A stretch of 64,000 nucleotides of DNA from a virus (taxonomy: Duplodnaviria > Caudoviricetes): positions 55-64,054 of IMG/VR virus record IMGVR_UViG_3300042541_000805. One strand, 5' to 3'. Made by a program: the position numbers and the translations under genes. The notes beneath the pieces were generated by a model that saw only the letters and a program-made list of their open reading frames with translations, had not been told where the DNA came from and ran no database searches. Of the stretch, positions 324 through 46,300 are shown piece after piece (within the stretch, counting starts at the first letter, position 1; the number at the start of each line of letters is the position of its first letter).

Positions 324-606
324 AGTAATTTAACTAATACTCCGAAAAAGGTTTGAGGTTTGTGGTAAGTAAAAGATGTTTAACTCCCCTCCCCTCAAAG
401 AAAAGGAATTAAACACTAATACTTACTCTAATACTCGTCAAATAGGAATCGGATATGTAGGCTGTTAAGGGGAAGATGTTTGGCAGCCCTTCTTAACATT
501 TAAAAGTTCGTTATAGATACTGCTATATACAGATGGCGTTAGCCTCACCTTGTACACCCATAGAGTCAATTGGTTTATGCTTAAAGCTAACCTTATTTCT
601 TGGGGC

Positions 607-710
607 AAAAAAAAACCCTAAAGTCGCATCTTTAGGGTCGGGAGTAAATAAATAATAAAATATATTTAAACCGTTCCCGAAGATATATGCGACTATTTTC
701 GGAAATAAGT
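607..710 (-). ncRNA. Candidate small two-hairpin RNA or attenuator ending in an intrinsic terminator
   Basis: -7 box TATATTTG at 715-722; hairpin 674-704; terminator stem 615-623/630-638 plus U tract; loops carry complementary 8-mers. Confidence 0.5.
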
Positions 711-768
711 TCTGCAAATATACAAAATAATATTTTATATATCCAAATTTAATTTATACTACAAATCC

Positions 769-878
769 AAAAACCCCGCTAGGGACTTGCACACACCCGA
801 AGGTGAAGGATTAACAATATTCTTGTGCGAACAAAACTGACCCATTCATCCCTAACGGGGTTCTTGATCTATGTAGCA
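769..878 (-). ncRNA. Candidate structured small RNA (~110 nt)
   Basis: -7 box at 885-892; 14-bp closing stem 772-785/849-862 with one G-U pair on the minus strand; C(UUCG)G hairpin 794-805; U tract. Confidence 0.6.
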
Positions 879-914
879 AAAGTGCAAATATAAAAAAAAT
901 AAATTATTTTATAG

Positions 915-1205
915 TGGATCTGGAGGGATTCGAACCCTCGTGTCGTTACACATCCATATTATAGAGTTTTTACAAGGTTATTGGGGTTGCTTAGAACAAC
1001 CACTCCACCACTTGGTTTAAAGTTCCAAGAAACTTAACATTAGGCTGCTAACTTGTATTCTACAGTATTAGCTTCAACGTGAGCAAGGATATCCTCGATA
1101 CCTACACTCGATAATTCTGGTTTGCCATTTAATTGTTTGCAACAAAAGCCTGTTGCCACTCCTTGTCTATAATACTTACTTGCCCGATCGATTCCAGTCA
1201 GACCC
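915..1205 (-). ncRNA. ssrA: tmRNA (transfer-messenger RNA)
   Basis: Acceptor stem GGGTCTG/CAGATCC with G3-U pair and discriminator A; T arm GAGGG-TTCGAAT-CCCTC; helix 2 TATTATAGA/TCTATAATA and ACAAGG/CCTTGT; internal tag frame ending YKLAA-stop; -7 box at 1212-1219. Confidence 0.95.
1040..1126 (-). other. tmRNA tag reading frame (A)GKPELSSVGIEDILAHVEANTVEYKLAA
   Basis: GGC resume codon after ATTAAAT, open for 28 codons to TAA; C-terminal YxLAA degron-like end. Confidence 0.8.
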
Positions 1206-1265
1206 ATGCAACAAAAATATAAAAAACATTCGAATTAGAAAAAGTTATTTTAAGTAAATTTGGGA

Positions 1266-1691
1266 ATGACAACAATAGTAGCAGAATATAGATATATCCC
1301 TTTTGGAACAAAGGTTAACATTGTGATTACCAATGATATAACAGAGGCTGTTAAACTTTACGATAAGGACTACGATGAAACCTTAGATTATTCTACTTGG
1401 GTTGCATCCTTTATAGAAGGAGAAGGAAGTTGTTGCTATTTAGTATTTAAACCAAATCTTACCATATCTGATATTATACATGAAACCACACATATGGTTC
1501 AGTTTGTAATGAAGTACCATTTCGTGCACCTAGCAGACGATTACGATGAGAATATGGCTTATGGTATCTCTTATTGGTCAGAGCTTGTTATAGCGACTCT
1601 AATAAGGGAAACAGAGCATATATCTCCTTGGATTAGAGAACAGGCTCAAACTCAGCTTTACGATTCAATCGGAAATATGCCCCAACTCTAA
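1266..1691 (+). CDS. Putative zincin-like metallopeptidase (HExxH)
   Basis: IIHETTHM plus downstream E in DENMAY; ATG 3 nt after TAAATTTG box at 1255-1262. Confidence 0.55.
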   Translation: MTTIVAEYRYIPFGTKVNIVITNDITEAVKLYDKDYDETLDYSTWVASFIEGEGSCCYLVFKPNLTISDIIHETTHMVQFVMKYHFVHLADDYDENMAYGISYWSELVIATLIRETEHISPWIREQAQTQLYDSIGNMPQL

Positions 1692-2208
1692 TCTTTTGTT
1701 GGATTACATCATATCCTCCAAAGAACATAGTATTAGAATACTTTGGGATATATAAACCATCTACAGATAGTGAAACTTGTTTGCTATTAAATAGTACTGA
1801 AGAGCCTACTGCAAAGGTTGGTTTTACTTTAGGTGCAATAAATACAGTCTTGGTAATGAATTGATCCATAATATCAATAGAAGCCATTCTAGCAATAATC
1901 ATATTTTGGGTAACTCTTTCTTTTATTGCAACAGTTGCCTTATCAAAACGAATAGTATCTATATACTCTGAAGTAGCATAGAACTCATTAATAACGTGTG
2001 ATGTATCTACATTATTAATAATGGTATCTGTATAATACTTAGTCACCGGGACTAACTTAGTAATATATTTAGTTTGGGTAGGTCTAGCCACATACATTGT
2101 ATCTATTTTAGTTTTAACGACTTCTATAGAAACTTCTTTATTACAGCTTTGTTGTAAAAGAATAAATCCTAATATGGTAGCAACTACCCAACCTAATATA
2201 CTTTTCAT
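1633..2208 (-). CDS. Membrane-anchored protein, possible spanin-like lysis accessory
   Basis: N-terminal hydrophobic segment followed by SC (lipobox-like), beta-rich C-terminus. Confidence 0.4.
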   Translation of the reverse strand: MKSILGWVVATILGFILLQQSCNKEVSIEVVKTKIDTMYVARPTQTKYITKLVPVTKYYTDTIINNVDTSHVINEFYATSEYIDTIRFDKATVAIKERVTQNMIIARMASIDIMDQFITKTVFIAPKVKPTFAVGSSVLFNSKQVSLSVDGLYIPKYSNTMFFGGYDVIQQKIRVGAYFRLNRKAEFEPVL

Positions 2209-2586: not shown

Positions 2587-2659
2587 ATTCTTATCATTAA
2601 GCCCAAATATAGAAATTTTTATTTGATATATATAAAATATTATTTTACCTTTGTTAAAT

Positions 2660-2929
2660 ATGGAACCAAATGTTAGATTATTAGGTGATACTGTTTTAGT
2701 TAAAGCAGATAACTTACCAATTGAAAAAACAGAAGCAGGAATCTATTTACCTGAGAAACTTCGTGATAAGTACATAACAGGAACAATCTTAGCAACTGGC
2801 GATGATGTAAAGCAAGTAGAGCACAACTGCAAGGTGGTGTTTGAAAAATCATTATGCAGAGAAACTGTTATTATGGGCGAACCGCTATTCATTATCAAAG
2901 AAAATCAAATCTTATATAAATTAGTATGA
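2660..2929 (+). CDS. groES: GroES-like co-chaperonin
   Basis: LLGDTVLVK, EKTEAGIYLP mobile loop, GTILATGDDV, IIKENQIL; -7 box 2646-2653. Confidence 0.85.
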   Translation: MEPNVRLLGDTVLVKADNLPIEKTEAGIYLPEKLRDKYITGTILATGDDVKQVEHNCKVVFEKSLCRETVIMGEPLFIIKENQILYKLV

Positions 2930-7302: not shown

Positions 7303-7919
7303 TACTTCTTTTTACCTTCTTTTTCTGCATTGCGTTGTGCTCTGCGTTCAGCGAAGTTTATCTTCTCCTCCAAAGGTTTAGATTTCTCCCCTTGTTTAAC
7401 CAGATCCAAAATATCAAACTCCCCAAATTGTTTATCAAATTCTTCACGTATAATTTTTAATTTGTTGTACATTTCAAATGCATTCTCAGCCGCCTTAGCG
7501 ATACCTTCATATGCAACTTTTTCTTGAGCCTCATCTACTTCCATAGGTTTGGTTCTTGCTTTCTCTAACAGGTTACTAAATGCCTCATCAAGTGAAACGT
7601 AAATTTCAATGACAGGGTTATTAGTAACTGTAAAGAACAATGATACAGCCCACCTCAGCTCTTCTAACTGATTACTCTGGATAGCACCTCCGACATCTTT
7701 AATGTCTAAAATTTGTAGTGCTTGTGATTTTCTTTCCTTTAGTAGTATGCTAAAGATTGGGCTGTGAGAATCATACACTAAACAAGCGTATCGAAATAGC
7801 TTATCGGTAAATGGATCCTCAAGATTTTTATATATAGCGAGTTGCGGATATTGCTCTATTAATACACCCTTACATAAAGGGTCGTACCTCATTTTACTTG
7901 TGTCGACTGTCATATACAT
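7302..7919 (-). CDS. Hypothetical helical protein, candidate terminase small subunit
   Basis: Position upstream of terL, size, C-terminal FAERRA; functional call is inference. Confidence 0.4.
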   Translation of the reverse strand: MYMTVDTSKMRYDPLCKGVLIEQYPQLAIYKNLEDPFTDKLFRYACLVYDSHSPIFSILLKERKSQALQILDIKDVGGAIQSNQLEELRWAVSLFFTVTNNPVIEIYVSLDEAFSNLLEKARTKPMEVDEAQEKVAYEGIAKAAENAFEMYNKLKIIREEFDKQFGEFDILDLVKQGEKSKPLEEKINFAERRAQRNAEKEGKKK

Positions 7920-8505
7920 CCTCCTTATTTAAGTAAACGAAATCAATATCAAAGTTACTACCTCTCATTTTGTAATACTTCTTTCCATCAATGTAGATGT
8001 CATAGTCTGAGTTTGGTGAGTAGCGAAACCTATCGCCTACCTTTACCTCTTTTACTTTAGGTGCTACAGCTACAGCATCGGCAATTAATTTAAGTTCATC
8101 AGGATTTGCTTTAAGCATTAGTCCACTTGCAGAAATATAATTAGACTCATGCTCCATTACAGGCTCAGAGATAACATACTCATTAAAGGCATCCATTGAT
8201 CCGTCATCATTCAGACGAAAGAATACCTGTCCTTGATGTATCATGCATAGCTCTTTACCATCAGCGTGTACTCTGTTATTTTTATCAAGCATAAAGTGAT
8301 GGCAATAAACTAAATCACCATCTTTAATGTTATACTCTTCAGCAAATTTTGGGGGGCATGAATAGACTCTACCACGCATCACCATAAGCCTGCGGGTATT
8401 ATCTCGATTGGTTTCAATATAGATATCTATATCACCTAGTTTTCTTTTTGAATTTTCATCAAAATCTACATCTATAAAAAGATGCTCATTCTTAGCCTTT
8501 AACAT
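7894..8505 (-). CDS. Tandem (two-domain) GroES-like protein
   Basis: Two GroES-like halves: GRVYSCP...IKDGDLVY and YVISEPV...SGLML...VKVGDRF. Confidence 0.7.
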   Translation of the reverse strand: MLKAKNEHLFIDVDFDENSKRKLGDIDIYIETNRDNTRRLMVMRGRVYSCPPKFAEEYNIKDGDLVYCHHFMLDKNNRVHADGKELCMIHQGQVFFRLNDDGSMDAFNEYVISEPVMEHESNYISASGLMLKANPDELKLIADAVAVAPKVKEVKVGDRFRYSPNSDYDIYIDGKKYYKMRGSNFDIDFVYLNKEDVYDSRHK

Positions 8506-26499: not shown

Positions 26500-26920
26500 G
26501 CCATCTACAGGTGCTGTTAGAAATGCAACAAAGGTTAGCTACGATGGTATAACATTTGACTCTAAGTTAGAGCAGTATGTGTACGCACAATTAAAATTAC
26601 ACAAAATAAAGTTTGCGTTAAAGTACAAGGTTGTTATCTTTGATAAATTTAGATACAACGATGAGTTGATTAGAGAAATAAGTTGGACTCCAGACTTTAT
26701 ACTTCCCGATCATAACATTGTACTAGAAGCAAAAGGTTATGCAAATGACCAATGGAGTTTAAAGATTAAACTAATAAAGAAATATTTCTTGGAGGTCGTT
26801 GACTTCGTATGTGTTTTAAACGGGGGTTTATTTTACGAAGGAAAACTAATCAAGCCACAGATTGTGATTTGTAAGAACCAAAGAGAAGTGTTAGCCTTTG
26901 TTTCAAGTTTGAAGGGTTAA
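26474..26920 (+). CDS. PD-(D/E)XK endonuclease (DUF1064-like)
   Basis: YDGITFDSKLE, WTPDF, VLEAKG. Confidence 0.8.
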   Translation: MSRVRKVSKPSTGAVRNATKVSYDGITFDSKLEQYVYAQLKLHKIKFALKYKVVIFDKFRYNDELIREISWTPDFILPDHNIVLEAKGYANDQWSLKIKLIKKYFLEVVDFVCVLNGGLFYEGKLIKPQIVICKNQREVLAFVSSLKG

Positions 26921-26966
26921 GCAACACCGCCCTAAGTGTGTTGTAAAGGTTATAAACAACAAAAAA

Positions 26967-27272
26967 ATGGCATTTATTGCAAACGGAAGACTTAACATAA
27001 GTCAAATTGACAAATCAAAAATCATTGAAGGCAAAAATGGTGCCCAATGGATTAACATTACAATCTCAGCAAATGATGAACCTGATCAGTATGATAACGA
27101 CATCTCGATCACCATTGCTAGATCGGAAGAAGAAAGAAAGAAGGACTCGCCTACTTTTACAAAAGCTGTGTACTTAGCTAACGCTAAAACAACTTGGAGT
27201 AATGGTGTAGCACAAAAGGCTATCAAAAAAGATAAACCTCAAGAGCCAACAGAAGACGTATTACCTTTCTAA
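26967..27272 (+). CDS. Putative single-stranded DNA-binding protein
   Basis: Small beta-rich protein with acidic EDVLPF C-terminal tail. Confidence 0.65.
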   Translation: MAFIANGRLNISQIDKSKIIEGKNGAQWINITISANDEPDQYDNDISITIARSEEERKKDSPTFTKAVYLANAKTTWSNGVAQKAIKKDKPQEPTEDVLPF

Positions 27273-28481: not shown

Positions 28482-28961
28482 ATCCTTATCAGACTTATAA
28501 GGGATATATTTAGTAACGCCACTAACTTTCTTAGCAACCAATACCTGTTTCCTTTGCTTACCTGTTGACTCATAAGAAACATGAACCCAAGCTGGATTAC
28601 CTTTTTCTGGGAACTCTGCGATTAATTGATCGAATGTTAAGTGGTCTTTAATATAATCGAATACCATCTTATTAGAAACGCCTGTGCCTCTACCATCCTG
28701 ATCTAAGTCAGCTGCCTCACCAGAACAATGTTGTGATGTTGCACTAGATCCCGGTGTAGCATCATTTAAAGCCTTAGAACGATACCCTGAAGAAATCCAT
28801 ATAGGTTTACCAAAATGCTCACGAACTTTATCTAGGACGTTTGTAGCTAGTAATTTTAAGCACTCTAAATGTGCAGGTGTTGGATTGTTTTTGATGCCTA
28901 ATCTTTTTGCAGTTGATGAAGGTGTTAACTCTCCTAGCGTAAAGTATTTTGATAGTTGCAT
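28473..28961 (-). CDS. Endolysin, peptidase M15A family
   Basis: ISSGYRS, SQHCSGEAAD, WVHVS. Confidence 0.92.
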   Translation of the reverse strand: MQLSKYFTLGELTPSSTAKRLGIKNNPTPAHLECLKLLATNVLDKVREHFGKPIWISSGYRSKALNDATPGSSATSQHCSGEAADLDQDGRGTGVSNKMVFDYIKDHLTFDQLIAEFPEKGNPAWVHVSYESTGKQRKQVLVAKKVSGVTKYIPYKSDKDLE

Positions 28962-28964
28962 AAA

Positions 28965-29141
28965 TTACTTTTTGCCTTTTAGAATATCGTCATTCATTAA
29001 ATAGCCAAGAGCAGCGATACCACCACTAATCACTAACATTAAAATAGTTTTAGGTGTTAATTGCTCTTCTAAAGAAATTGTACTCCACGCTGTAAGGACT
29101 GCTAATGTAGCACCCATTAATGTTGTTTTCCAGTTTTTCAT
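28965..29141 (-). CDS. Holin-like protein (58 aa), not in ORF track
   Basis: MKNWKTTLMG..., two hydrophobic segments, basic C-terminus, directly upstream of endolysin. Confidence 0.75.
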   Translation of the reverse strand: MKNWKTTLMGATLAVLTAWSTISLEEQLTPKTILMLVISGGIAALGYLMNDDILKGKK

Positions 29142-29392: not shown

Positions 29393-29420
29393 TGATTGTT
29401 AAACATATACAAATATAATA

Positions 29421-29447
29421 AAAAAGCCACACATTTCTGCGTGGCTT
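29421..29447 (-). terminator. Intrinsic terminator
   Basis: AAGCCAC/GTGGCTT stem with U tract on minus strand, followed by a TATATTTG box for lysis genes. Confidence 0.75.
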
Positions 29448-29469
29448 AGTTGGGGTCGAGAGAGTACTA

Positions 29470-29928
29470 TTATTTATCCATTACTAAGATAAGTAAGTCC
29501 ATAAACGTAGGATATGACTCCTCAGTTTCTAGTTCTTTTAACTCATCCATAGTAATTTCTTCAAATTCAAACTCAATTTCTTTAGCTAAAAGCTCTTCCA
29601 TTTTGTTTGCAAACTCTACATACTTAGGGTTGAATTCTTTTACTTCTGCCTCTGCATCTACATACATAGGGATTGAAATAGAACCATTTTCTCCTTCAGT
29701 ACCATACTCTTTTATTAACTCTTCTCTCAACTCATCGTTTGCTTTTTTGATGGTTGATAGGGAGTTAAGTAACATTTTCAGTTTAAACTTGGCGATCATC
29801 GGCATTTTATGGCTTAACAAGCCTTTTAAAATCGACTCACCTGTCTGTTGGTTTTGTAACCCGCCAATCTCTGCCTCTAAAGACATGATTTGAGCAAGTT
29901 TTAGCGTAGCTTTCTTCTTTTGATTCAT
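29470..29928 (-). CDS. Acidic helical protein, probable tail-fibre assembly factor
   Basis: REELIKEYG...ELLAKEIE; follows tail fibres. Confidence 0.5.
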   Translation of the reverse strand: MNQKKKATLKLAQIMSLEAEIGGLQNQQTGESILKGLLSHKMPMIAKFKLKMLLNSLSTIKKANDELREELIKEYGTEGENGSISIPMYVDAEAEVKEFNPKYVEFANKMEELLAKEIEFEFEEITMDELKELETEESYPTFMDLLILVMDK

Positions 29929-29945
29929 ATAGATTTAAATTTAAA

Positions 29946-30224
29946 TTACTCTACAATAAGGACTAAGCCTTTTTCATCCGCTACAATCTCGTACAATACT
30001 GAGTTATCAGTACCCCAAGTTGCGAATTGCTCGTCAGTCATCTGTACGTTACCTTGTAATAATTGCATACCATTAGCGTCAGCTAAGTAGTAATATAATG
30101 TACAATTTACAGCTGAAGCTGAGAAGCTATTAGCTTGTACATACAATTGAGTAGCTGTTCCTAATGTCGGTACTACTACTGGTTCGATAGGCTTTAAGCC
30201 ATTTGTCATTGGTGTTGGTTCCAT
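29946..30224 (-). CDS. Tail-fibre-associated small protein
   Basis: ORF track; position after fibre gene; own -7 box 30241-30248. Confidence 0.55.
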   Translation of the reverse strand: MEPTPMTNGLKPIEPVVVPTLGTATQLYVQANSFSASAVNCTLYYYLADANGMQLLQGNVQMTDEQFATWGTDNSVLYEIVADEKGLVLIVE

Positions 30225-30263
30225 TTTTTTCTAATTTAAGCAAATATAAGTATTATTATTTAA

Positions 30264-33200
30264 TTATTTATTTTTTAGTATTTCTATTTCAGCTTGTAAC
30301 TCTTTTATAAGCACTTGTTGTTCTTTGATAGCTTCAATGAATAGACCTGCAAAGTTACCATAAGAAACGCCATATACATCAGCATCTTTAGAGTGGTGAA
30401 CTACTTCAGGAACATGAGGCTCAACTTCTTGAGCAATTACACCCATTTCTCTTTTACCTGAATCCTGATCCTTTTTAGTATATGTAACACCTCTTAGATT
30501 AGTTACCTTTTCTAAAGCATTTTCTACTACTTCAACATTCTCTTTGTTTCTGCCATCCGAGTTAGCAACAATAGCACCTGTGGCATAAATAGCACCTGCA
30601 ACCCTTAATCTATAAGTTGCATCTATTGCTGAACTCCCTATTGCTAAACAATTTGCTGTATAATCATAATACATAACCCATCTGCCACCAGTTTGGTAAT
30701 ATAAACCTCCAGATCCAGTTGAGTTAAACATCATGTGTGGTGCATTTGTTACATTGAATAATAATCCAGTATAACCACCTTTAGCACCTGTTATTTCCCA
30801 AAAACCATAACTTGATGTATTATTTGTTTTAAAATACCCATTAACACTACTTAAAACTGTTGTTAACCCATAATCTCCTACTGAAATGTAATTACTTGTA
30901 ACCCCAACACTTCCAAAAAATACAGCTGCACCAGTTTGAGAAATCCTAAACCTTTCAGTATTATTAGTAAAGAACATTAATGCACCTTGTGTAGCCGCAC
31001 CACTTTCAAATCCTCTAATTTGTATTTTAGCTGCGTTAGCTGCTGTTGTACCATATCCACCTCTTAATGTTAAACTACCAGTATCACTCGTATCACTACC
31101 ACCTAAAATATCACCAGTAGTAGTAATAATAGTTGAAGCAAATGTTGCTTTACCACTTTCAATTGATGCTATAAAATTATGTGCTGAATCAAAAAATGAA
31201 TGTTTAGCTGAATTACTAACATTATATACTTCAATAGCAGCATGAGAAATACCATACCCTCCTGTAGTTGATGATTTTATGCTCCATTCATTTGCATAAA
31301 GCCCAGACCCTCCCCCTAATATTAAGTGACAATAGTTAAATCCCTTAGCATTTAAGTATAAATTACCTCCAGCAGTAATACTTCCGTCTTCTCCAATACT
31401 AATTCCATATAGGATATTATTTGCATATGATATCCTAAACATAGTTCTTGCTTCCACATCACCAGTAGAAAATACTCCTGCTTTCCAAGTAGTTGTACTT
31501 GGAGTAGTTGCAAACGATGAATAATATTCAATATAACCTGAAGTATATACATAGTCTTTATTTATTCTAGCATAATTACCTGCGACTGTTAATATATTTG
31601 TAACATTCCAAGTGCCTGTTAAATATCCACCATACCCCGCTCCTTGGTAACAAAGAATACTCGACTCTGCGTCTTGGTCATTTATTATATAAATACCTTC
31701 ACTTGCTCTACCTATTGAAAACTGTTGAGTATATTGGGTATAGAAGGCAAGACGAACAGATGTAGTATCATTTGAATTTACAACCCATCCTGCACTTTGA
31801 CTCCAAAAAGAAGAATTATTTGCTGAGTTTTTTATTCCATAATTATCTGTAGAATTTACAAACCAACCATCTGTAGTTAAGTCACCTGATATTGTACCCC
31901 CTGATATAGGTAAAGCATAAGAGCCAATGTTACCAGAATGAATAAGTGTTGCTGTCCAATTAATATTATTGCCATTACCTCCACCAATTTGGGCATTAGC
32001 AAAGTAATAATCAACAGCAATAAAACCTTGTGTATCAGCACCTGACCAAGCCATCATAGTCCCATAAGCATTCAACCCTGATAATGCTGTTGGTACAGTA
32101 TTCCACCTCGCTGCTGATATGTTAAAAGTATTAGATGTAAGACCAAATAATGTGCTTCTAAAATTTGAAGCAGTTAATCCATCAATATACGCAGGAGCCT
32201 GAAGACTATATCTACCTAAATCGTGTGTATGACCAACTAAAGCATATCCAGATAATGCAGATGTTGTAGCATAAGCACTCGAATCAACACTACCATCTGC
32301 TTTTAAAAACTGAGCGGCTGTACCTCCTGATTTAATAAATGAACCTGCTGTAACGCTTGAGCTAAATGTTGCTGCACCTGCCCCATTAATAGTTAATCTA
32401 TCTAAACTTGCAGTTTGTAAAATTAACGCTCTTGCTGAACTATCGTGACCTATATATAATGCTGAGTCATTTATATTAAAACTTGAAGTATATCCACTTG
32501 TAGAATTCCCTTTAAATTCGAAAGTTGCTGCACTTCCTGCTTTTATTGTTAATGCTGTAGTATTATTTGCTGAAGTTACTCTCGCTGTCCCGTTTACATC
32601 TAACTTAAAGTCTGCGTCTGTAGTTGTGCCAATTAAAACATTACCGCTTGAAGCAATACGCATTCTTTCTGTAGCAGACCCATTTGTGTAAAATCTAATA
32701 TTCTTGCTTGTTTCTGCATATAATGCTAAATCCGAAGATGTATCGCCTAATGCAGCACCACTACCTCCAAAGAATCCCGAAGAAACACCATTCTGTTTAA
32801 CTGCATAATAAGCCCCACCTGTTGTACTTGATGTATCTAATGATATACCTGTATAACTACCTGAACCAACTATTGTTAGTTTATCAGTAGGATTTGTAGT
32901 TCCAATACCTACATTACCATTACCTTTTATTGCTAATTTAGTAGACCATCCTGCCCCACCGTAATGAGTTTGAAAAGAAAAATCTACATTATTAGCACTA
33001 GTCCAACTCCCAGCTCTAAAGGTCATTCCTGTAGAAGCATCGTATGTATTTGTTATATAATTATAATAATTACCATCATCATAAGCCCAAGCTAAATTTT
33101 CTTGATTACCAAGTTGTACAGTTCCTTCAACGTGTAGCTTTTGCTCAGGACTTGAAGTACCAATACCAACTTTACCATTAGTAGCAATAAACATAGCATT

Positions 33201-36700: not shown

Positions 36701-38040
36701 TTTTTACCCGGACTTGAAGTCCCTATACCAACATTCCCTGCGTTTGTTACAGAAAATATTTCACCTGAATTTGTTTTAATTCCTAGAGCATAATAAGCGT
36801 TACTAGTCCCCCCATTAGAGATAAATAATGTAGGTTTATTAGCAGATGTCCAAGTTCCTCCTCCATTTTCCGCTACTTCTAATTTACCCGTTGGAGTTGC
36901 AGTTCCAATACCAACACTTGTACCATTATCAAAAACTAAAGAGTTCCCTATTGTACTCGTACCTGTAAACTTAGGCAAGTAGTTAGTTGTACCACTACCG
37001 CCAATTTTATTATTGAAAGTTGTCCAATCAGTAGAAGATAAATATCCATTCGTTGAAGTACTTGATTGAGCAATACTAAATACCCCACTACCATTATAGC
37101 TAAGTGGAGATGTAGCAGATAAGTCACCAAAGTCAACCTTTGCATCAAATGCCGACCAATCGATAGAACTTAAAGCCCCTCTTTTAGTAGCCGATGCTGT
37201 AGGTAAATTAAATGTATGCGTATCTGTTACACTTGAAATAGCAAAGTCACTACCACTTGTACCAACAGCAAAGTTCTGCACTTGAGCAGTTAAACCATTT
37301 AACGCTGTTAAGCCTGTAGTAAATGTTGTGATAACTTGACACAAGTGACCATTCTGTGTATGGAGTGTAATTGTCCTCCCACTATGGTTAACATAAACCC
37401 TAACAGCTAACCTATCAGTTAATGTTAAGGTAGTTGTAGGGATTGCTAATGCAGTAATATATAAATCTGTAGCTGTACCGCCTGTAATAGATTCAGGAGC
37501 AGTAGAACCACTTGCAATTAAGGTAAGCGTAGTACCATCGTATTTATATAATTCTACATAAAAACTTGGAGTACCACCACCTGAACTTGCAGAGAAAAAC
37601 ATCTCAAAGTTCCAGTTACCACCCGGTATATTTAACAATGCAGGGTCACCCGCATCCGTTACAAACTGAGCAACATAACCATCTGCATTAATACTAAAAT
37701 CAGCGTTTGTTCCTATTATAGCAGTTTTGCTCATTTCATAATAAGTGTTACCACCTATCGTCCCTTGAGAAACACTACCATTCAAATAGTAGTTTACTGA
37801 TGATCCGCCCCCGCCCCCACCTTGAGAGAACGTAGCCAAGCTACCATCACCCCTTACATATTGAGAAGTTGTACCTGTTGGATACGGATAATAGTTTTGA
37901 TTCTTAACAAAAGCCGTAGTAGCAATGTTGGTAGAATTATCACTCGTAGTAGGCGTTAATGCTGTAGCGGTGTTATTTAATGTCGTAACACCATCTACAG
38001 TTATCCCCGCCTTTGCGTATAAAACAGATAAAAAATTCAT
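33733..38040 (-). CDS. Long modular tail fibre
   Basis: 1435 aa Gly/Ser/Thr-rich; GNVGIGT and KLDVNGTAR repeats; IATTAFV motif. Confidence 0.88.
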   Translation of the reverse strand: MNFLSVLYAKAGITVDGVTTLNNTATALTPTTSDNSTNIATTAFVKNQNYYPYPTGTTSQYVRGDGSLATFSQGGGGGGSSVNYYLNGSVSQGTIGGNTYYEMSKTAIIGTNADFSINADGYVAQFVTDAGDPALLNIPGGNWNFEMFFSASSGGGTPSFYVELYKYDGTTLTLIASGSTAPESITGGTATDLYITALAIPTTTLTLTDRLAVRVYVNHSGRTITLHTQNGHLCQVITTFTTGLTALNGLTAQVQNFAVGTSGSDFAISSVTDTHTFNLPTASATKRGALSSIDWSAFDAKVDFGDLSATSPLSYNGSGVFSIAQSSTSTNGYLSSTDWTTFNNKIGGSGTTNYLPKFTGTSTIGNSLVFDNGTSVGIGTATPTGKLEVAENGGGTWTSANKPTLFISNGGTSNAYYALGIKTNSGEIFSVTNAGNVGIGTSSPGKKLDVVGTTDTSIRVRDTGGASLELYQQATSSYILATNTLITYTGGSERMRVDATGNVVIGAITPTATLDVRSKAASGSITAPTFRAFGYDTDSYFQVNNNASNSADIKLTRSDATTMFEINGHTGLAYFNGNVLIGGTALPLNRKISIEGNITGGTTAYGIDQFVTISSGVTTSMFGYRSNPSTAAAAFTLPDLYHFYANDVAIGAGSAVTRQYGFFSNIASGTGDWNLYMGGTAANYMNGNLLIGTTTDAGFKLDVNGTARIVGAVTTNSSSGFRLDSAGSILFSLGYSGGTLLDRLTGTAIRIAENGTPQLTIATGGAATFSSSVTASSLIKSGGTSSQFLKADGSVDSNTYQTTITLTTIGTSGAATLVGSTLNIPNYADTDTGITSLNGLTALTQTFAVGTSGTDFGISSASSTHTFNLPTASATNRGALSSADWTTFNNKQNALTNPITGTGSTNNLPKFTGSTALGNSNLVNDTIGNLGLGITPVNSYTPSLSLEIGANGILWSEKATSSFNSIFIGLNSYFNSAGNPLYKNTGLLASRYTQSQGSHIWDTAPSGTANGAITFATNMRLDANGQLGLGVTPSAWSGFKALQTVGGSLIGAAGELQLWQNAYYDGASKYYATGTATRYGMTAGQHRWYYAVSGTANAALTWVQAMTLDASGRLGIGITSPLGKLQVVLPTYTNEDTDSQQAIFGSGTNGYGVRIGYSESGNYGVINSIKPAVAWGNLVLQSGGGNVLIGTTTNSSYKLDVNGTARVSGKLTVDNNSGISILASTNFGMNMYFDNATGYSYIDSKYDSAGSGRLYIRTRTNGTPVNALMFLGTGAATFSSSVTATNFIVPGGTSAQFLKADGSLDSNVYLTSTSSTFSYTASVTLSPTWQNTGVSSANLGTGVYLVTCNANDFGVGGLQYNCTYTGLMYFFAGATNGSDANEIVLHHTGHADNGRYIYLRTLNTVSADGKTYLQISGNGTNSAASNYQLTFKKLL

Positions 38041-38052
38041 ATTTTATTTAAA

Positions 38053-39030
38053 TTATTTTTTTATAATCACCCTGTATTGATTTAAAGATGGTGCAACCGC
38101 AAATGTTACGGTAACAACAGCTGTAGAAGTTCTAGCAACATCAGCATAAACTGTGTCACCTGTTGAAACCTCTGCAATCTGTACAACAACATCTAATGTA
38201 TTCAATCCATGAGTTAATGCAAATGATGTAGCAGATGCGTTACCAATTGTAACAGCGTAACCACCAACCCTTGCATCTAATAATGTTTTTAATTTTAAAG
38301 GTGTAACGATTGTTAAATCATTCGTACCTGTATTTGTTTCTGCTTGTGTAGCAAGTCTTGCAATACCAGCAACAGTTTCTGTCGCTTGAGTTACATTCGT
38401 TTGTAAGATTGTCCAATCTGTAGTTGAACTAACATTTGGATTATCAATATTCGCAATAATAACATCCCCAACTTCTAACACAGCACCATTAACAGTTCCA
38501 GCAGATGTTACTCTCCAGTAGTCACCCTTGTTTGTTCCACCCGGTGCAACAGGGAATGTTGAAGCAGAACCTGCAGCAAAACCACCAACGAAGTAACCTA
38601 ATGAAGCAACCGCAGAGTCTACATAAGTCTTAACAGCATTTTCAGTTGTTAACTTTACCGATGAGTTACCTGTAATTGAATCTGTCCAAGCAGCTGTAGC
38701 TAACTTTGCAAATGTAGTACCACCATCCTTCAAACGGATTGTGTTTGTACCGATTTCAATAGTAGAGTTATCTACTACTACCTGCAAGGTAATTGCACCT
38801 GCTGTACCACCGCCTGACATACCTGATCCCGAAGGAGTAAGTACCGCTGTGATATCACCAAACGTAGCCCATGCTGTACCATTGTAGTAGTACAAGACAT
38901 CGTCTGTAGTGTTGTAATAAATTTGACCCTCAACTGGTGATGAAGGTACTGTTGAACGTGGGTCTACGACAAGGTTTATAACCGTTGTCCCTGATCCCAT
39001 TTGAATGTCGGTGAGGAATTTCTGTGCCAT
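38053..39030 (-). CDS. Virion fibre / structural protein
   Basis: EGQIYYNTTD, ATETVAGIARLATQAE, THGLNT motifs typical of fibres. Confidence 0.75.
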   Translation of the reverse strand: MAQKFLTDIQMGSGTTVINLVVDPRSTVPSSPVEGQIYYNTTDDVLYYYNGTAWATFGDITAVLTPSGSGMSGGGTAGAITLQVVVDNSTIEIGTNTIRLKDGGTTFAKLATAAWTDSITGNSSVKLTTENAVKTYVDSAVASLGYFVGGFAAGSASTFPVAPGGTNKGDYWRVTSAGTVNGAVLEVGDVIIANIDNPNVSSTTDWTILQTNVTQATETVAGIARLATQAETNTGTNDLTIVTPLKLKTLLDARVGGYAVTIGNASATSFALTHGLNTLDVVVQIAEVSTGDTVYADVARTSTAVVTVTFAVAPSLNQYRVIIKK

Positions 39031-39031
39031 G

Positions 39032-39757
39032 TTAGTTTAAGTATGCCTCACCTTTTATTGTAGATGAGAATGTTATTGTTAATTGGTTATTTGTGTTGTA
39101 TGTTATATCTCCATTTACTACATCCCCATCTAAATCTATCACCGTAACTGAAGGTCTAAATCCTAAATTATGTGTTATTGTCCACGCAGCACTATTTGCA
39201 CTTTGTATGTGTCTGTATGACTGCGGTATATCAAATGATAATACCGAACCATCGCTACTAATTAAATCTACTATGTAAGTTTCTCCCAATGTAACATTGG
39301 TGTCTACAAGCATATGATTACTAGCCTCAGTCCACTCTGCAACCCTAGCATCATTCTCAGCGATCACAATTGGATCGTCAGGGTCTAAAGCTGGAGCTGA
39401 TAATCTTACGATACCATACGCCAAGTTAGTAGCCTTAGCAACGAAACCTATAAAGATTTGGTTGATAAGCTGAGTCATTTGAGGATTATGAACCTCGTAG
39501 GTAGTAGAAAGGAAGTTAGCAGGTAGGTAGTCTAGCAATGTATTAAACTGCTCATTAATTAACTGCTCCTGCGTTGGCACATAATCAATATTATATTGAA
39601 TAGTTTTGATTAAAGCCTTTACAATTCTAACCCTACTCCACTCATACTCTGTAATGTTCTCACCTGTGCTACTCTTTACTAAAATACTATACCAATACTG
39701 TGCAAGAACAATCCTTGCATATACTAAATATACCTGTATCTCACTTATTGGTCGCAT
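39032..39757 (-). CDS. Tail-associated structural protein
   Basis: YGIVRLS; C-terminal WTITHNLGFRPSVTV. Confidence 0.65.
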   Translation of the reverse strand: MRPISEIQVYLVYARIVLAQYWYSILVKSSTGENITEYEWSRVRIVKALIKTIQYNIDYVPTQEQLINEQFNTLLDYLPANFLSTTYEVHNPQMTQLINQIFIGFVAKATNLAYGIVRLSAPALDPDDPIVIAENDARVAEWTEASNHMLVDTNVTLGETYIVDLISSDGSVLSFDIPQSYRHIQSANSAAWTITHNLGFRPSVTVIDLDGDVVNGDITYNTNNQLTITFSSTIKGEAYLN

Positions 39758-40313: not shown

Positions 40314-43300
40314 TTAATCATCTTTGCCAAATCCATCTTCATTTGACTTTCTTATATCCTTTCGTCTATTTTTATATTGCTCAGCCTTAATTTCATATAA
40401 GAAACCTTGTGACACTTTATTTAAGTTACCTGCAAAACGAGGGTTATAATTTTTATTCCACAATAATACTGCAAGATTTAAAGTTTGTGTTGCCTGCATT
40501 GCTACAGCTTCCCTACCTAATTCTTTATCAAATTGCTTACCATTAGCCATATCAGATATTATATCAGCATTACTAGAAAGTATACCTCCTAGATATGATA
40601 ATCCAGATATAGCTGATGCAGCTTCTACCCCTGCTACCATTCCAATTTTATATTGGGTTGGGTATGAATTTAAAAATAAATTAGCACTTCTACCTGCTTT
40701 TATAGCAGTATTATATTTTGCCTCATTTTCTTTTTTATTTTCACTAAATTGTCCACTTTTCTTTAAGAAGAATAAACTAAGAGCTACAATAGGTCTAGCT
40801 ATGTTTTGGAATCTACCTAATGACATAGTAGTAATAGCACCTAAAAAGTCTTGTGTAAATGCATCACCAGTTAGCCATTGCTCTTTAAATTGGTTATATT
40901 CCTCAACAAAATATTTAGCATCTAATAATTTTTCTTCATCTCTTTCGCCAATTGCACTCCCTATTGTTTCGATCCCAGCTGTAATAAGTCCAATAGCAAT
41001 ATCCATTGTAGCAATGTATATCATTTGTGATACAACAGACCTTGAAATCCTACCCGCTAAAGCAACTGATTTATTATTTCTATTTCCATTGCCTTTATAG
41101 ATATCAACCATCAATGCCTTTATAACTTCTGAATCATTATTATTATACCCAGTTAAGTTAAAAATTGTCCTCATCCATTTATCTTTCCTAGGTATTTTCC
41201 AACGATTAATAATAGGAATTAACGTAATGTATTCTGCTTTAGATAAAGGGTTTTTAGATATTAAGTTTTTAGCAATAAATAAATCTGCTTCGTCCCTAGC
41301 TTTAGTAAACTCTCTAATGTTATCTAGATAATATTTTTGTGGATTTTCGTTATAAGCATTTGCGTCAAATTTTGTACCTGATATTTTTTCAAAGTTTTTG
41401 ATAAATAATGGTAAGTAAGTTTGAGCCACAATAAGTCTATCTGCCCAAGCTGTTTTAATAGCTTTATTCCCTTGTATCATTTGACCCTGAATACTTGCAG
41501 AAGTTTGACCTGCCGTTTTTTCTGCTTCAGACCATAAGAACTCCCCTCCAAGTTGAGTAGCAATTTCATATGCTGCTTTATCTCTATTATTTAACTCCTC
41601 TATATAATCTGCATCATAAGTGTTTGTTAATTTACCAAACTTTTCCTCAACAAATTTCATCATTATTTTAGCACCTTCTTCAGAGGTAGCTACCTTTTCT
41701 AAGTTAGATAGATAATCAGAAGGTTGTCTAATATCATTTGTAACTAATAGCGTATTTTGAGTATTTAATAAAGTACTGATTAATTTATCACCACCCTTAG
41801 ATTGTCCTACTATAAACTCAGTCTGTAGCATTAAACTTATAGAATCTCTACAAGCCGTTAAGAATCTTTGTTCACCCTCAGACTTAGATTTATTCTCCGC
41901 TAATTTTAATGCATCTATTGAGTTTTCTATAATCCCTTTTAGTGAATACTCCATCATAACATCGTTAGAATGCATTTGTAATATTCTTTCAGGATCAATA
42001 ATTCTAGGTGCTAAACCATCACCAACACGACTATAAGTAGCAGATGAATTTTTCTTTAAGTTTTGAAACGCATCAGAACCTTTGCTTATAGATTCTGCAA
42101 AATCTTTCCCTGTTATATCTTTACCTATAGCCCCTGTAGCATATTGTCTTGGTGCATAATTAATAGCAGCAAGGTATTGCTCACCTTTTTTAATTGAGTT
42201 AATCTCAGTAAAAGATTCGTAAGACTTAATAGTTTTTCTAAATACTTTTATATAATTACCTAGAACCTCATCAATCCCTCCTAATTTATTTATTACTTTT
42301 TCAACTCCTTCTGGTGTATGTAAAATTGAATTTTCATTTCCTACAGAAGGATCAAGTCTTTTAATAATATCATATGCTTTTTCATAATCTTTCATTAAGT
42401 CTTCTATTCTCTTAGTAGCATCATCACTTTTAGCATTTTTTATAAAACTATTTTTGTTTTCAATAACATAGCCAGCATAATCTTTATATTTTGCCTTTTC
42501 TGCATTAGGTAAATTTGATATATAATCTAGTTGTTGTATTAAAATAGCTATTGCGTGTTTAACATCTTGCATAGATTTATCATATCCAACAACCTTACCT
42601 ATATCTGAAGTCTTTAAAGAACCTACTACCTTGCCAAAGAAAACTCCTTTTTTAACTTTTACACTTACTTTAAGTTTATCTACTGCATTACTTATTTTTA
42701 CAAATTCAGTATTATTTTTAGCTGTAATAAAATCTTTTCTCGCTAATGCTGTACCATATGGTTGATATATATTATTGTAATATAAATTCACATCACCCAT
42801 TCCTAAGAATGAATCCACATTATGCTTAGCATGAGTAGTCATGATGTTAGATAAATCAGACTTAGTTTTAGCCCCATCATATTCAGAATCCATTTTTTTA
42901 ATATCTTTAGCAAAAGCAGTATCACCTTCAATAACCTTAGCTAAATCGCTTGTAATATCATTCTTAAATAGAATGGTTGCTACTTTGTTATATGAATCAT
43001 AAATCTCAGGATGTACGTAACCTTCCATTGCCTGTTCTGAATAGAACATAAAATCAGCAATCTCTTCTATTGACATCTCATTTAATACATCTTCAGTAAC
43101 GCTATTAGCAAAGGCAGATAAATCAGAACTTAATAATGTAAATGTATCATCACTAACATCAGCATCTTCTTTAAATTGCTTAGATAATGTGTAGTCTTTT
43201 AAATCAACTGCTATATCAGTAGCATCAGATACTATAGATTCTTTAAATTTAGCTATCTCTTCTCTAATAGGTTCAGATAATTCATCTTCAATACGACCTT

Positions 43301-46300
43301 CTACTTCTGATAATAAAATAGGATCAGCTTTAAAATCTGGTAATATTGAATTTATTTTATTAAGTACTCTATTGTATGCTTTAATAGACCTTTTTAATGA
43401 TAAATAATCATCCAAACTTTCTATCTCTTGCTCTGAATCAATAAATTCATTAATATTATCATATGTTTTATTTAATGATTTTGTAAGGTTCTCTTTAGCG
43501 TATTTAACCTCTACTTCTGTTGCCTGATCTTTATTTATTAAGTTAAGTTCTACGAATTTATTTAAATTTTGATAAATCTCTTTTATGTTCATAAACTTAC
43601 CACCATCAGCAGTTTCAGCACCCAAACTATTATAAGTTCTATCTAACGCTTCTTTTAATGATGTTTGCTCAGCAGATAACACCTCATTTATTTTATCTAC
43701 TAAACTAGCCATATTAGGCTTACTTGTTAATAGTTGTTTAGAAACATCAATAAAGTTATCAATATCATTTTCAGATAAGTATTTTAAATTTATCGTCTTT
43801 AATCTAGCAATCAATTGGGTAGCATTACCTTTATTTTTTGTAGATAATGCCTTTTTAATTTTTTGTGCTGTAATATATTTCTCAATAAATTCAGCTTTAG
43901 CCATTATGCTATCTACTTTATTTATAAATAAGTCTAAATTCTTTGTAGAAGAAACTTTAGCAGCTTTAGTAATAAGACCCTTTAAAATGTTTTGTTTAAC
44001 AATTCCTATTTTTTTAGATTTTAAGTAATCTATAGCTGTATTAAATATTTCATCAGAGATTTTCATCTTAGCCTTAGATGTTTCCCTACCTTCAGCTTTA
44101 CCTTGTTTATAAGATATATTTCTGTCTTTAAGGTAGTCTTCAAAACTCATTGAAACTCTTTCTTTTTCTCCTAAGAATTTAACCTTTGCATCATCATATA
44201 TTTTAGTTAATTCAGTTGGGGTATTTCTACCAAAATCTAAATTAAATTTCTTTTTTATTTCTGCTTTAAAGTTATCTATAGATTTTATAGTTTTGTTTTT
44301 AATTCCTTCATAAGCATATTGAGTTAAGTCATTTGCTAAAGGTGATTCTTTTATAGCCTTTCTAGATTTTTGTTCATCTGTAAGTTCTATCTTTTTTGTT
44401 TCATCCTTTATCTTTCTAAATAAAACTTCTTTCGTTTTTTTACTAGCTTTAAACGAAACTTCTTTAGCCCCTAAGATATCTTTTAATGCACCATCAATAA
44501 ACTCTTCTAGCGTTAAATTTTCAACTTGTTTAGGTGTAAGGTTTTTTAAAGAGGGGAATTTTTCTTGAATATATTTATATAACCCAACTAACCATTCTTT
44601 AAATTTACTCTTTTTAGCTGCATCTGTGATAGATTCTCCTCTATTACCAATTAATATAGCTAATGCTTCTTTTTTGGCTTTTAGAGTATCTCCATACATT
44701 TCAGTAGCATCAGAAAACTCTTTTGTTCCTTTAACTAAATCAAGTCCTTTATTAAATAAAGCAGAGTTACTATTTTCAAGTAAATCAATCCAAATGTGAC
44801 CAACCTCGTGAATAGGAGTATTTAAACTACTAAACTCTGGGTTTAAATATACGTGACCATCTTTTGTTAATCCATATACAACTTCATTTTCTTTTACAAA
44901 TTTCTTAACATTTTCTGAATCTAAAACATCACCCCAAGTATTTTCATCTGTAAAGAATTGCACTTTAGGAAAAGATAATTGTAAATACCCGATAATTTTA
45001 TTTAAATCATTTGGAGATTCTCCAATAGGTTTATTCCTTAATACAACATTGTTTAATGCAGCTGGTAGCCCAGCGGAAACCATTTCATTCCCACTAACTT
45101 TTTTACCTTTTCTTTCAGCAGTTAATAATTTATTTACAATATTTCCATATGCAGCTGGCATTACACTAGCTAAATGTGAAGTTTCTTCCAATACGCCTAA
45201 TCCTTGACCTTTTAAAGCAGCAGGATAATTAGGATGTGTTTTAATTATAACTGGCTTATCTTCACTTATGTCTATACCAACAAAACTAATAATATGTTTA
45301 TCGGGTACATTCTCTAGTGATTTATCAGCTAAATTATCTATTAAGTTACCAAGATTAATTCTTTTTATTTCTGCTTTTGGAAGATCTCCTATTAATGCTT
45401 TTGCAACATCTTTTTTAACAGTTAATTTACTTTCACTTGGTATAAGATCTGCCTTACCACTCGTAAATCTAGATATTAATAATGGTCTAGTCCCAATGTC
45501 TAGTTCGGTTGATCTTTTTAAAAGTTCATCAAAAGATTTTACAGTCTTTAATAACTCTAATATTTTTTTATAACCCCTACTTGAAGCCATATCTGCTGGA
45601 GTAGGATCACCATTTGCTTTATTAATTCTTTTTTGTACTACACTTAATTGGTTTTTAATATCTCCTTCAAGTAAATTAAATGCATTTACTTTATTTTCTT
45701 TAGGGATTACACCATCTGATAAGTTGTCAATTATTTGTCTTATTACTGCTTCATTAGATGACATTGCAGATTTACCCATTTTAACAACAGCAACAGGTAT
45801 ATGATTTTTAGGCAATTTGCCATCTGCCCATAACTTATCAAATAATTCTTGGTTATTATTATAAATACTTTTAGCCACATTTAATGTATCTGTAGCTGTA
45901 TCTGTATCTGTATAAGCCCACGCATATCCAGTATTACCTTTTGAATAAGGGAATAAATTACCTCCATTTAAATTATCAATTTTATTACCAGTTATTGGAT
46001 TTACTACATCACCAGTTGTTAATTCATCTGATATAGTAACCATTATTGGAATACCTTTATAATCAGCTATTGTAACAATATTTGGCTGTTTAGCTAATCC
46101 TTTTCTATTTTTGATAGATTTAATGTCTAATTTACCTTTTGATAAGGTAGACTCAGAAGGATCAACTTCTATATTAACCCCTTCTAATTTATTTATTTCA
46201 TCTACAATACTTTCTGTATCTTCAATTACATATTGTTTTTTACTAAATGCAACATCTTCTTTTTTAGCAATCTTTAATTTTTTACCTTGTGATTTATTAA

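Follow-up and report, generated by a model that had tools for sequence, protein, structure and literature searches.

A stretch of 64,000 nucleotides from a virus of the class Caudoviricetes (IMG/VR record IMGVR_UViG_3300042541_000805), here called the window, carries on its minus strand, at positions 912..1205, a one-piece gene of 294 nt for a transfer-messenger RNA (tmRNA, ssrA). The gene most probably specifies a working, phage-borne tmRNA of reduced size (291 nt before CCA addition) that would depend on host factors. Comparison with its copies and distant relatives indicates that the 28-residue tag it encodes is real, and that the extension is translated and held by selection as a peptide. 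Selection on the tag appears strongest on an internal peptide, not on the C-terminal degron, the defining feature of tags in bacteria.

The window comprises all but 54 bases of the 64,054-bp record, which was rated 100% complete by CheckV. The phage is, by sequence comparison, a podophage related to Flavobacterium and Cellulophaga phages; its large terminase matched 86 GenBank phage records, all below 60% identity (best 30.9%), and among these were 68 Flavobacterium elemo podophages, 15 Cellulophaga phages and one Maribacter phage.

The tmRNA gene and its RNA structure

The Rfam tmRNA family RF00023 matched the gene end to end (model positions 1-374) with 55.0 bits (E 7.5e-19), the gathering score of the family being 47 bits. 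It was the sole Rfam match in the window at gathering thresholds, and the whole record gave the same match. In the numbering used below, RNA position p corresponds to window position 1206-p, and all parts of the gene lie on the minus strand. The RNA through the discriminator A is 291 nt long (915-1205) and is followed by CUA (912-914). A tmRNA at 915-1205 had been proposed in a sequence-only reading of the window; it is the same gene ending at the discriminator base, and the RF00023 match and the structure, as counted on four copies, confirm it.

The structure was drawn by hand and counted on the four distinct full-length copies, i.e. the window and the contigs L004, L003 and L017, for which RF00023 scores of 55.0, 55.3, 48.4 and 49.4 bits were obtained. 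The RNA strand starts with GGGUCUG and ends with CAGAUCC-A-CUA. The acceptor stem is formed by RNA 1-7 (1199..1205), which includes G3, and RNA 284-290 (916..922), after which the discriminator A (915) is followed by CUA in place of CCA. Its pairs were standard at 7/7 positions in 4/4 copies, the alanine identity pair G3.U288 was kept in all four, and pair 4-287 changed from U-A to C-G in L017. The T-arm (RNA 267-283, 923..939; GAGGG UUCGAAU CCCUC, pairs 267-271/279-283) was found both by RF00023 and by the pair counts, with pair 270-280 being G-C in two copies and A-U in two. Helix 2 consists of RNA 31-45 (1161..1175) and RNA 229-250 (956..977), the latter strand with a 7-nt internal bulge. 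Its 15 pairs are all standard, 14 of them invariant and one varying from A-U to G.U.

In the place of the first pseudoknot (PK1), before the resume codon, lies a hairpin (RNA 50-67, pairs 50-55/62-67; 1139..1156) in which pair 51-66 changed from C-G to U-A and two further pairs from A-U to G.U. A second hairpin of 10 pairs, an analogue of helix 5, lies within the end of the tag frame (RNA 134-159, 1047..1072) with the stop codon 3′ of it; 9/10 pairs are invariant and one changed from U.G to U-A. After the stop follow an H-type pseudoknot (RNA 171-195, 1011..1035; stem 1 AAGUU/AACUU, stem 2 CUUGG/CCAAG) and a hairpin (RNA 205-221, 985..1001; GGUUG UUCUAAG CAACC) with five pairs, none varying. 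In the pseudoknot, pair 180-192 changed from G-C to A-U in L003 and pair 171-186 from A-U to G.U. This pseudoknot had been noticed earlier with six pairs in stem 1; the pseudoknot is present, whereas the sixth pair is not, since the sequence reads AACUUU and the stem has 5 bp. The typical but not obligatory set of four pseudoknots (PK1-PK4) was not found, the RNA having a hairpin at PK1 and then one pseudoknot and one hairpin.

The 62 drawn pairs (248 cells in four copies) were standard in 99.6% of cells, compared with 36-44% when the 3′ partners were slid by 1-3 columns. Changes on both sides of a pair were seen four times (4-287, 51-66, 180-192 and 270-280), one each in the acceptor stem, the PK1-substitute hairpin, stem 2 of the pseudoknot and the T-arm, as against none in six slid controls.

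Several observations weigh against the identification. The RF00023 scores exceed the cut-off by 1-8 bits only, and helix 2a fits poorly in the Rfam alignment. With four near-identical DNA copies there is little covariation power and the support is modest; the hairpins at RNA 205-221 and 134-159 are without double changes and have thermodynamic support only. A scan by Infernal or ARAGORN had been suggested as a check, and the two programs disagreed, RF00023 scoring above its cut-off whereas ARAGORN at default settings reported no tmRNA in the window. At 80% stringency ARAGORN gave a wrong, permuted topology but chose the identical tag, and this relaxed output was used for the tag call only.

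For comparison with the host side, 18 tmRNAs of Flavobacteriia were taken from genome contigs by the GExNYALAA pattern, so that their tags are not an independent sample. The host tmRNAs are 393-402 nt long and scored 108-160 bits, as against 294 nt and 48-55 bits for the window type. The tRNA-like domain with G3.U, a near-identical T-arm, GGC after UUUAAAU/UUUAAAC, Gly as the first residue, the lack of an encoded CCA and the UAA stop are all shared between the window gene and the chromosomal SsrA of Flavobacteriaceae. The differences include the place of PK1, where the host has about 40 nt of PK1 sequence and the window an 18-nt hairpin, the single pseudoknot and hairpin after the tag, and the length of the tag, which is 28 residues in the window and 9 in the host (GE[NSGD]NYALAA). 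The 5′ domain and helix 2 of the window are also unlike the host in sequence, and the 5′ 21-mer of the window tmRNA was found in no bacterial genome of 185,579 species. The host genes all (18/18) end in ..CCAC and two variable bases, and none encodes CCA; among the phage copies RNA position 293 is U or A and the 3′ end CUA or CAA. The earlier remark that CCA is not fully encoded, the gene ending in A-CUA, is therefore correct and describes the host norm too.

The GExNYALAA tag type attributed to the host by the sequence-only reading was seen in these 18 tmRNAs, although the set had been picked by that very pattern. The derivation of the window tag from such a tag by an insertion of some 19 residues was not supported, the tRNA-like domain and helix 2 being unlike those of the 18 Flavobacteriia tmRNAs and the 5′ 21-mer being absent from bacterial genomes. 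In Maribacter flavus the chromosomal tmRNA gene is preceded, at a distance of about 110 nt, by a Flavo-1 RNA (L165 2260-2352; RF01705, 47.3 bits).

The tag reading frame and its conservation

The tag frame comprises 28 codons (RNA 80-163) followed by UAA (RNA 164-166), together at window positions 1040..1126 on the minus strand, and reads GKPELSSVGIEDILAHVEANTVEYKLAA*. The resume context, UUAAAU and then the resume codon GGC (1124-1126), is at 1124..1131 and has U at -5 and A at -4, the positions of U85 and A86 by which the frame is set in E. coli tmRNA (PMC2481249). The Rfam alignment puts GGC at the resume codon of the model, and UUAAAU|GGC is the context of most of the 18 host tmRNAs, in which GGC is the resume codon without exception and is preceded by UAAAC/UAAAU in 14, by UAAUU in 2 and by UACAC in 2. 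It is thus supported that translation resumes at GGC and runs for 28 codons to UAA, and rescued chains would receive Ala followed by GKPELSSVGIEDILAHVEANTVEYKLAA. A 28-residue tag beginning with G and ending in YKLAA had been read from the window before, and the frame and host-type resume context confirm it. The window tag is not of the nine-residue type, the first G and the Y-x-L-A-A end being all that it has in common with GExNYALAA.

Among the four DNA copies 23/294 positions vary. Two of these are among the 84 positions of the tag, both synonymous third positions, as against 21/210 elsewhere, where many are pair-preserving. Gene callers often report an open reading frame (ORF) of 55 codons here, which starts at an ATG across RNA +1 and ends with the tag. 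A search with this ORF in a collection of 5.8 billion proteins gave 5 clusters, which with their members held 26 distinct ORF variants on about 127 contigs (contig columns summed); an unrelated cluster member, P0062 (481 aa), was removed before all counts. The tag frame was kept in the 26 variants, which have 9 distinct tags and 14 distinct 26-codon parts upstream of GGC. In the upstream part 12/26 positions vary with a mean BLOSUM62 score of -0.59, and in the tag 8/28 with a mean of +0.58. One lineage, B (P0057, P0076-P0079; 27 contigs), has a 33-residue tag, GKPELSSVGIQDVLAHIEANLADTFV[P/A]EYKLAA, in which an insertion of 5 codons leaves the frame intact.

An exhaustive profile search of 1.84 billion protein representatives added lineage C (P0082; tag GKEQELSTMGINDILAHIESNVSEYQMAA, on 2 contigs) and lineage D (P0085; tag GKPELSSTNIEDVLAHIEANLAEEVLA, on 3 contigs). 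The parts upstream of these tags are unrelated to that of the window, beyond the first eight residues or entirely, and the tags are alignable. Six large multi-stretch proteins (P0080, P0081, P0083, P0084, P0086 and P0087) were left aside as presumed repeat matches, and P0088 was rejected, as it matches the part of the tRNA-like domain only, in another frame.

The most informative relative on the nucleotide level was lineage E, a 105-kb viral contig (L244) detected by a degenerate pattern over the core of the tag, with a tmRNA of 500 nt (78.8 bits) and the tag GNTNNVELSTTGIDDVLAHIEANLAYELV. Over the 17 codons shared with the window, 34/51 nucleotides and 12/17 amino acids are identical, and the differences are distributed 4/2/11 over the three codon positions. 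In the core the proportion of synonymous differences (pS) was 0.76 (saturated) and that of nonsynonymous differences (pN) 0.20. The pattern required part of the core, which biases the amino acid identity upward but not the placement of synonymous differences. Coding conservation of the tag frame in homologues had been named beforehand as a check, and with the in-frame indel, the conservative substitutions and the third-position bias relative to L244 its outcome was positive. Taken together, the resume context, the variation among DNA copies and the distant copies argue for an extension that is translated and kept by selection at the peptide level.

This reading also has points to its disadvantage. 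The contrast in BLOSUM62 between tag and upstream part is marginal (one-sided Mann-Whitney p=0.05), and the set of ORF variants is biased, as it holds only copies with a called open frame and could miss frameshifted tags. Lineages B, C and D are known as protein only, and P0082 and especially P0085 are placed in a tmRNA tentatively, by their peptide alone.

Eleven residues are identical in the window type (lineage A), P0057, P0082, P0085 and L244, namely G1 and an internal core, ELS..I.D.LAH.E.N. We define the long-tag group by this core, located after G-[KN] and before a short non-polar end, and the window tag fits this definition. The C-terminal ends differ between lineages (YKLAA, YQMAA, EEVLA and YELV), all being non-polar, and the core is more conserved than the end across lineages A-E. 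In bacterial tags the C-terminal LAA-type end is the constant part, which is the reverse of this pattern. The shared core was found on two RNA scaffolds, of 294 nt and 500 nt.

Four other readings of the gene were considered against these data. It is improbable that the RNA is a decoy that titrates host SmpB or blocks host trans-translation, with tagging being irrelevant. No match to the SmpB domain was detected in six frames of the 64,054-bp record at E<=1, in agreement with the earlier observation of no smpB, and host SmpB would therefore be needed, for which the phage must compete. The reduced set of pseudoknots and a precedent, the tmRNA of mycobacteriophage DS6A that is reported to have the tRNA-like domain only (PMC4131195, PMC11915505), also speak for a decoy. 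A decoy, however, needs neither an intact resume context nor an open frame of 28-33 codons with an in-frame stop, nor purifying selection on the peptide.

A slim chance is left for a functional rescue RNA in which the long tag has no special role, its extra codons being tolerated filler, for instance to provide loop length after pseudoknot loss, and only the non-polar end being needed. The pseudoknots and the tag content of E. coli tmRNA are reported to be changeable with little loss of rescue (PMC2481249), the ends are non-polar in every lineage, and Calle-type tags, described below, do without this core. Filler would nevertheless not keep 11 residues identical in lineages A-E while third positions saturate, and the same core occurs on the 500-nt tmRNA, which is not size-reduced.

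It is very unlikely that a real tmRNA resumes further in, at GCU (RNA 134), to give the 10-residue tag ANTVEYKLAA, with the preceding stretch being structured or spacer RNA. This short tag is canonical in length and form (A-N-x-x-x-Y-x-L-A-A), the hairpin at RNA 134-159 begins exactly at that GCU, and the single change in RNA 80-133 among the four DNA copies could be explained by constraint on the RNA as well. GCU, however, is preceded by UUGAA, which puts U at -4 in place of the required A, whereas GGC has the host-type context and the Rfam alignment on its side. The stretch before GCU evolves as a peptide in the comparison with L244 (4/2/11; pS 0.76, pN 0.20) and is alignable as protein in P0082 and P0085 despite the unrelated surrounding frame. 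The short tags of lineages D and E would be ANLAEEVLA and ANLAYELV, so that the canonical look is not kept.

It is scarcely credible that the locus is a protein gene of 55 codons (start ATG at 1207, stop TAA at 1040) with only an incidental likeness to tmRNA, even though the frame is open from the ATG through the tag and is predicted by gene callers on the roughly 127 contigs. The changes in its first 26 codons are radical and follow the base pairing (C-G to U-A at RNA 51-66 is A to V and C to Y), its ATG is replaced in L003-type copies, the upstream part in P0082 and P0085 is unrelated and of other length, and a covariance-model match, a G3.U pair and a T-arm are unexpected in a protein gene.

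The internal core and other long tags

With the long tag read as a selected peptide, the core may be recognised by an adaptor or a protease, of the host or of the phage, and the phage would in this way set the fate of released proteins. This favoured role is suggested by analogy with bipartite ssrA tags and is conceivable, though it falls short of being probable; the evidence for it is the conservation of the core. In the sequence-only reading a redirection of rescued proteins to a different adaptor or protease had been suggested, as had a countering of host ribonuclease toxins that stall ribosomes, and both are speculative. Among the 42 window ORFs that were searched against Pfam or PHROGs there was no protease, adaptor or translation factor, though the remaining ORFs may encode one. 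An amphipathic helix in the core was also considered, but the hydrophobic-moment test was no better than shuffles (17-71% score as high) and the claim was dropped. Somewhat more doubtful is the wider proposal of a tag class confined to phages and marked by the core, which flavobacterial phages would exchange among themselves on no fewer than two unrelated tmRNA scaffolds; a dedicated partner would recognise the internal peptide, and not a C-terminal degron.

The usual view of phage tmRNAs is that of parts taken over from the host to keep ribosomes free. If the proposal is true, infecting phages would take over the fate (routing, sparing or sensing) of every product of a stalled ribosome, which goes beyond copying host quality control. 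Selection on the internal peptide and the spread of the cassette between distant phages, described below, suggest that it matters to the phage what the tag contains. ELS..I.D.LAH.E.N is a concrete peptide that can be tested, and cultured relatives with long tags offer an experimental system.

These cultured relatives are the Cellulophaga phages Calle_1 (NC_062744.1) and phi38:1 (NC_021796.1) of the genus Callevirus, in which tmRNAs of 362 nt (87-88 bits) were detected. Their tag has 30 residues, GNNTNAVNAQIEANMEAVNAILNLEVAVGV, and ends in VGV. The description of the window tag as unusually long therefore holds relative to the host, with 9 residues, but not among phage tmRNAs. Calle has been reported with one tmRNA gene (PMC8776804), the tmRNA of Calle_1 is annotated without comment, and the GenBank records of both phages are silent on tag length. 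In phi38:1 (NC_021796.1) the 362-nt tmRNA at 26803-27164 (87.6 bits) is unannotated in RefSeq, and a hypothetical coding sequence, gp041, runs across it on the opposite strand. Like the window phage, the two are podophages of flavobacteria with a terminase of the same broad family (27.5-27.7% identity), and their tmRNAs resume in the host-type context UUUAAAC|GG. and encode a long tag with G as its first residue and IEAN within it. The tag differs in having no ELS..I.D.LAH core, IEAN being all it shares with the window group.

A tmRNA has been reported in 402/18,146 phage genomes (PMC9004378), and phage tmRNAs are listed in PMC4131195 and those of huge phages in PMC7162821. As ARAGORN at default settings misses the compact class and gene callers report a 55-residue protein, censuses of phage tmRNA that are based on ARAGORN may under-count. 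In phages generally, including the mycobacteriophage Bxz1 group, Bacillus phage G, Melnitz and the pelagimyophages and the huge phages, ssrA is, as in the window, usually found without smpB (PMC4131195, PMC9004378, PMC7162821). The roles proposed in the same papers are ribosome availability or protein tagging. These phages differ from the present one in the phyla that they infect, and often have a two-piece tmRNA; a conserved long tag is not discussed in the parts of these papers that deal with them. No paper describing long tags in phage tmRNAs was found in the literature, although supplementary tables may list some (PMC9004378 Table S1, PMC8776804 SI file 7). Phage tmRNAs and long phage tags are thus already in public data, and what is new is the compact form and the long-tag group with an internal core.

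The commonest length of a tmRNA tag is given as 10 (PMC11915505). Tags far above this length are reported in Mollicutes, where the long ssrA tag of Mesoplasma florum sends substrates to Lon instead of ClpXP and the sequence of the tag specifies the protease (PMC9382460). The M. florum tag is bacterial, ends in NYAFA and is dissimilar in sequence, and the protease switch there is experimental, whereas the window tag is known from sequence. Natural tmRNA sizes are reported to range from 250 to 425 nt, and loss of PK1 or of other pseudoknots occurs (PMC1168896). The reduced tmRNAs described there, from Oenococcus oeni (without helix 4 of PK1), from cyanobacteria (without pseudoknots) and from Synechococcus (250 nt), have kept the tRNA-like and mRNA-like domains, as has the window RNA. 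They are chromosomal and have ordinary short tags, whereas the window pairs the reduction with a lengthened tag.

A blastn search with the tmRNA gene of 50,697 phage records gave no match, and neither did a tblastn search of these records with the 28-residue tag, a query too short to inform. In an exact and degenerate pattern search of viral contigs, only L004, L003/L005 and L017 were of the window type, in addition to L244. Eighteen other pattern matches were inspected or screened with Rfam, with L013 and L019-L025 being left out. Among these, L016 is a proteobacterial tmRNA with the tag ANDENYGAEYKLAA, L010 and L011 are permuted tmRNAs of the alpha type, no tmRNA reached the gathering score in L006-L009, L012, L014, L015, L018 or L026-L029, Rfam matched nothing in L240 and L241 at E<=0.001, and L242 and L243 are protein-coding. 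A scan of metagenomes gave one contig, L030, which is identical to the window over RNA 1-235.

Expression, mobility and genome context

A sigma-A -7 box of the Bacteroidota type (TAnnTTTG), TATTTTTG, is located at 1212..1219 on the minus strand and ends 6 nt before RNA +1. Relative to RNA +1 it occupies -14 to -7 both in the window and in L004, and L003 has it 1 nt further upstream. In L017 a box with one mismatch, TATAATTG, is in register although the flanks are unrelated. TAnnTTTG occurs in the window 0.88 times per kb per strand. In Flavobacterium psychrophilum the -7 box is reported to span -12 to -5 relative to the transcription start (PMC9723704). From the position of the box and this spacing, the tmRNA is predicted to have a Bacteroidota-type promoter of its own, with transcription beginning some 2 nt ahead of G1, the mature 5′ end.

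Assembled contigs from four metatranscriptome runs, chosen for holding this stretch, were compared with window positions 500-1800 (the DNA runs and the RNA runs X19 and X20 were left out, and nothing on habitat is concluded from their small shares). Three of the four, from different studies, gave a single contig each (251-278 nt) that does not extend beyond the gene (914-1190, 942-1197 and 945-1195), and the flanking genes were uncovered in all four. Less favourable are the fourth run (X17), which has two pieces of 151 nt, one reaching 55 nt upstream of the 5′ end, and the nature of contigs from RNA libraries, which can hold DNA and show neither ends nor strand. The contigs within the gene are a weak hint of a discrete RNA.

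The 3′ end of the transcript would be trimmed and CCA added by host enzymes, just as must happen to the tmRNAs of the host lineage. Host alanyl-tRNA synthetase (AlaRS) is predicted to recognise the G3.U pair and attach alanine to the RNA, which would be brought to stalled ribosomes by host SmpB and EF-Tu, and the tmRNA itself would restore the supply of ribosomes during infection. Aminoacylation, SmpB binding and tagging are deduced here from sequence only, which counts against the pathway as a whole.

The tmRNA was not found by RF00023 in the sibling genome G001 (92% complete), the terminase of which is 99% identical to that of the window. The similarity between window and G001 ends exactly at RNA +1 and returns about 450 nt later, and in G001 the exact slot of the tmRNA and the structured segment downstream of it is filled by an HNH_3 endonuclease gene of 150 codons (L002 9182-9634; Pfam E 1.7e-12). 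As 58.9% of the window was matched in G001 and many segments differ, the comparison with this tmRNA-minus genome was uninformative. Among 41 related viral records of at least 10 kb, chosen from 80 loci found by a terminase profile, one (G002) had a tmRNA above the cut-off. Nothing was found by RF00023 in 4/6 GenBank relatives (Flavobacterium elemo phage NC_055854.1; MW202828.1; Cellulophaga phages phi19:3 and phi46:3).

G002 is a complete genome of 69.5 kb with a terminase 34% identical to that of the window. Its tmRNA differs at 16/294 positions (about 95% identity) and is located in a different gene neighbourhood. The two genomes share only 13.8% of the window at the nucleotide level, in segments that include 36961-39283 (tail-fibre region; 89.8%), 29408-30279 (92.8%) and the endolysin region (79%). 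Modules of the tail-fibre and lysis regions (36961-39283, 29408-30279 and 28534-28966) with 79-93% nucleotide identity despite 34% terminase identity suggest module exchange between phages of one host. The tmRNA gene is an accessory cassette, probably exchanged between co-infecting flavobacterial phages, and the pattern fits recombination between phages that share a host.

Immediately downstream of the tmRNA, at 752-885 on the minus strand, a segment of 134 nt forms a long stem ending in a U-run (-51.5 kcal/mol, z -5.9; 0/200 shuffles as good), with a TATATTTG box upstream of it. L004 shares about 127 nt of the segment (756-882) with the window, whereas L003 lacks them. No Rfam family was matched at E<=1, and the segment may be a small RNA or a large terminator.

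The genome further encodes a portal, the large terminase, virion proteins, an exonuclease, a methyltransferase, a primase/helicase, an endolysin and Rad52-like and resolvase-like proteins, and no tRNA gene was found in the window by ARAGORN. The stretch or part of it was detected in 20 runs of lake and freshwater metagenomes from 18 studies, three of them possibly being the source sample. Two Cpn10/GroES-like genes are present, at 2651-2929 (+) and 7894-8505 (-), supported by PHROG co-chaperonin GroES (E 1.7e-8) and, in the C-terminal half of a 203-residue protein, by Pfam Cpn10 (E 7.9e-5); in elemo phages an annotated GroES adjoins the terminase. The structural block contains an ORF of 3052 codons (40314-49472, minus strand) with no Pfam match above the cut-off and a sub-threshold match to DUF1896 at 17 bits, flanked by ORFs of 1435, 1331 and 1155 codons. 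Some relatives thus have an intein in their large terminase, as three of the 51 terminase relatives (P0008, P0011 and P0023) are about 1020 residues long and contain Hom_end/Hint (intein, homing endonuclease) domains.

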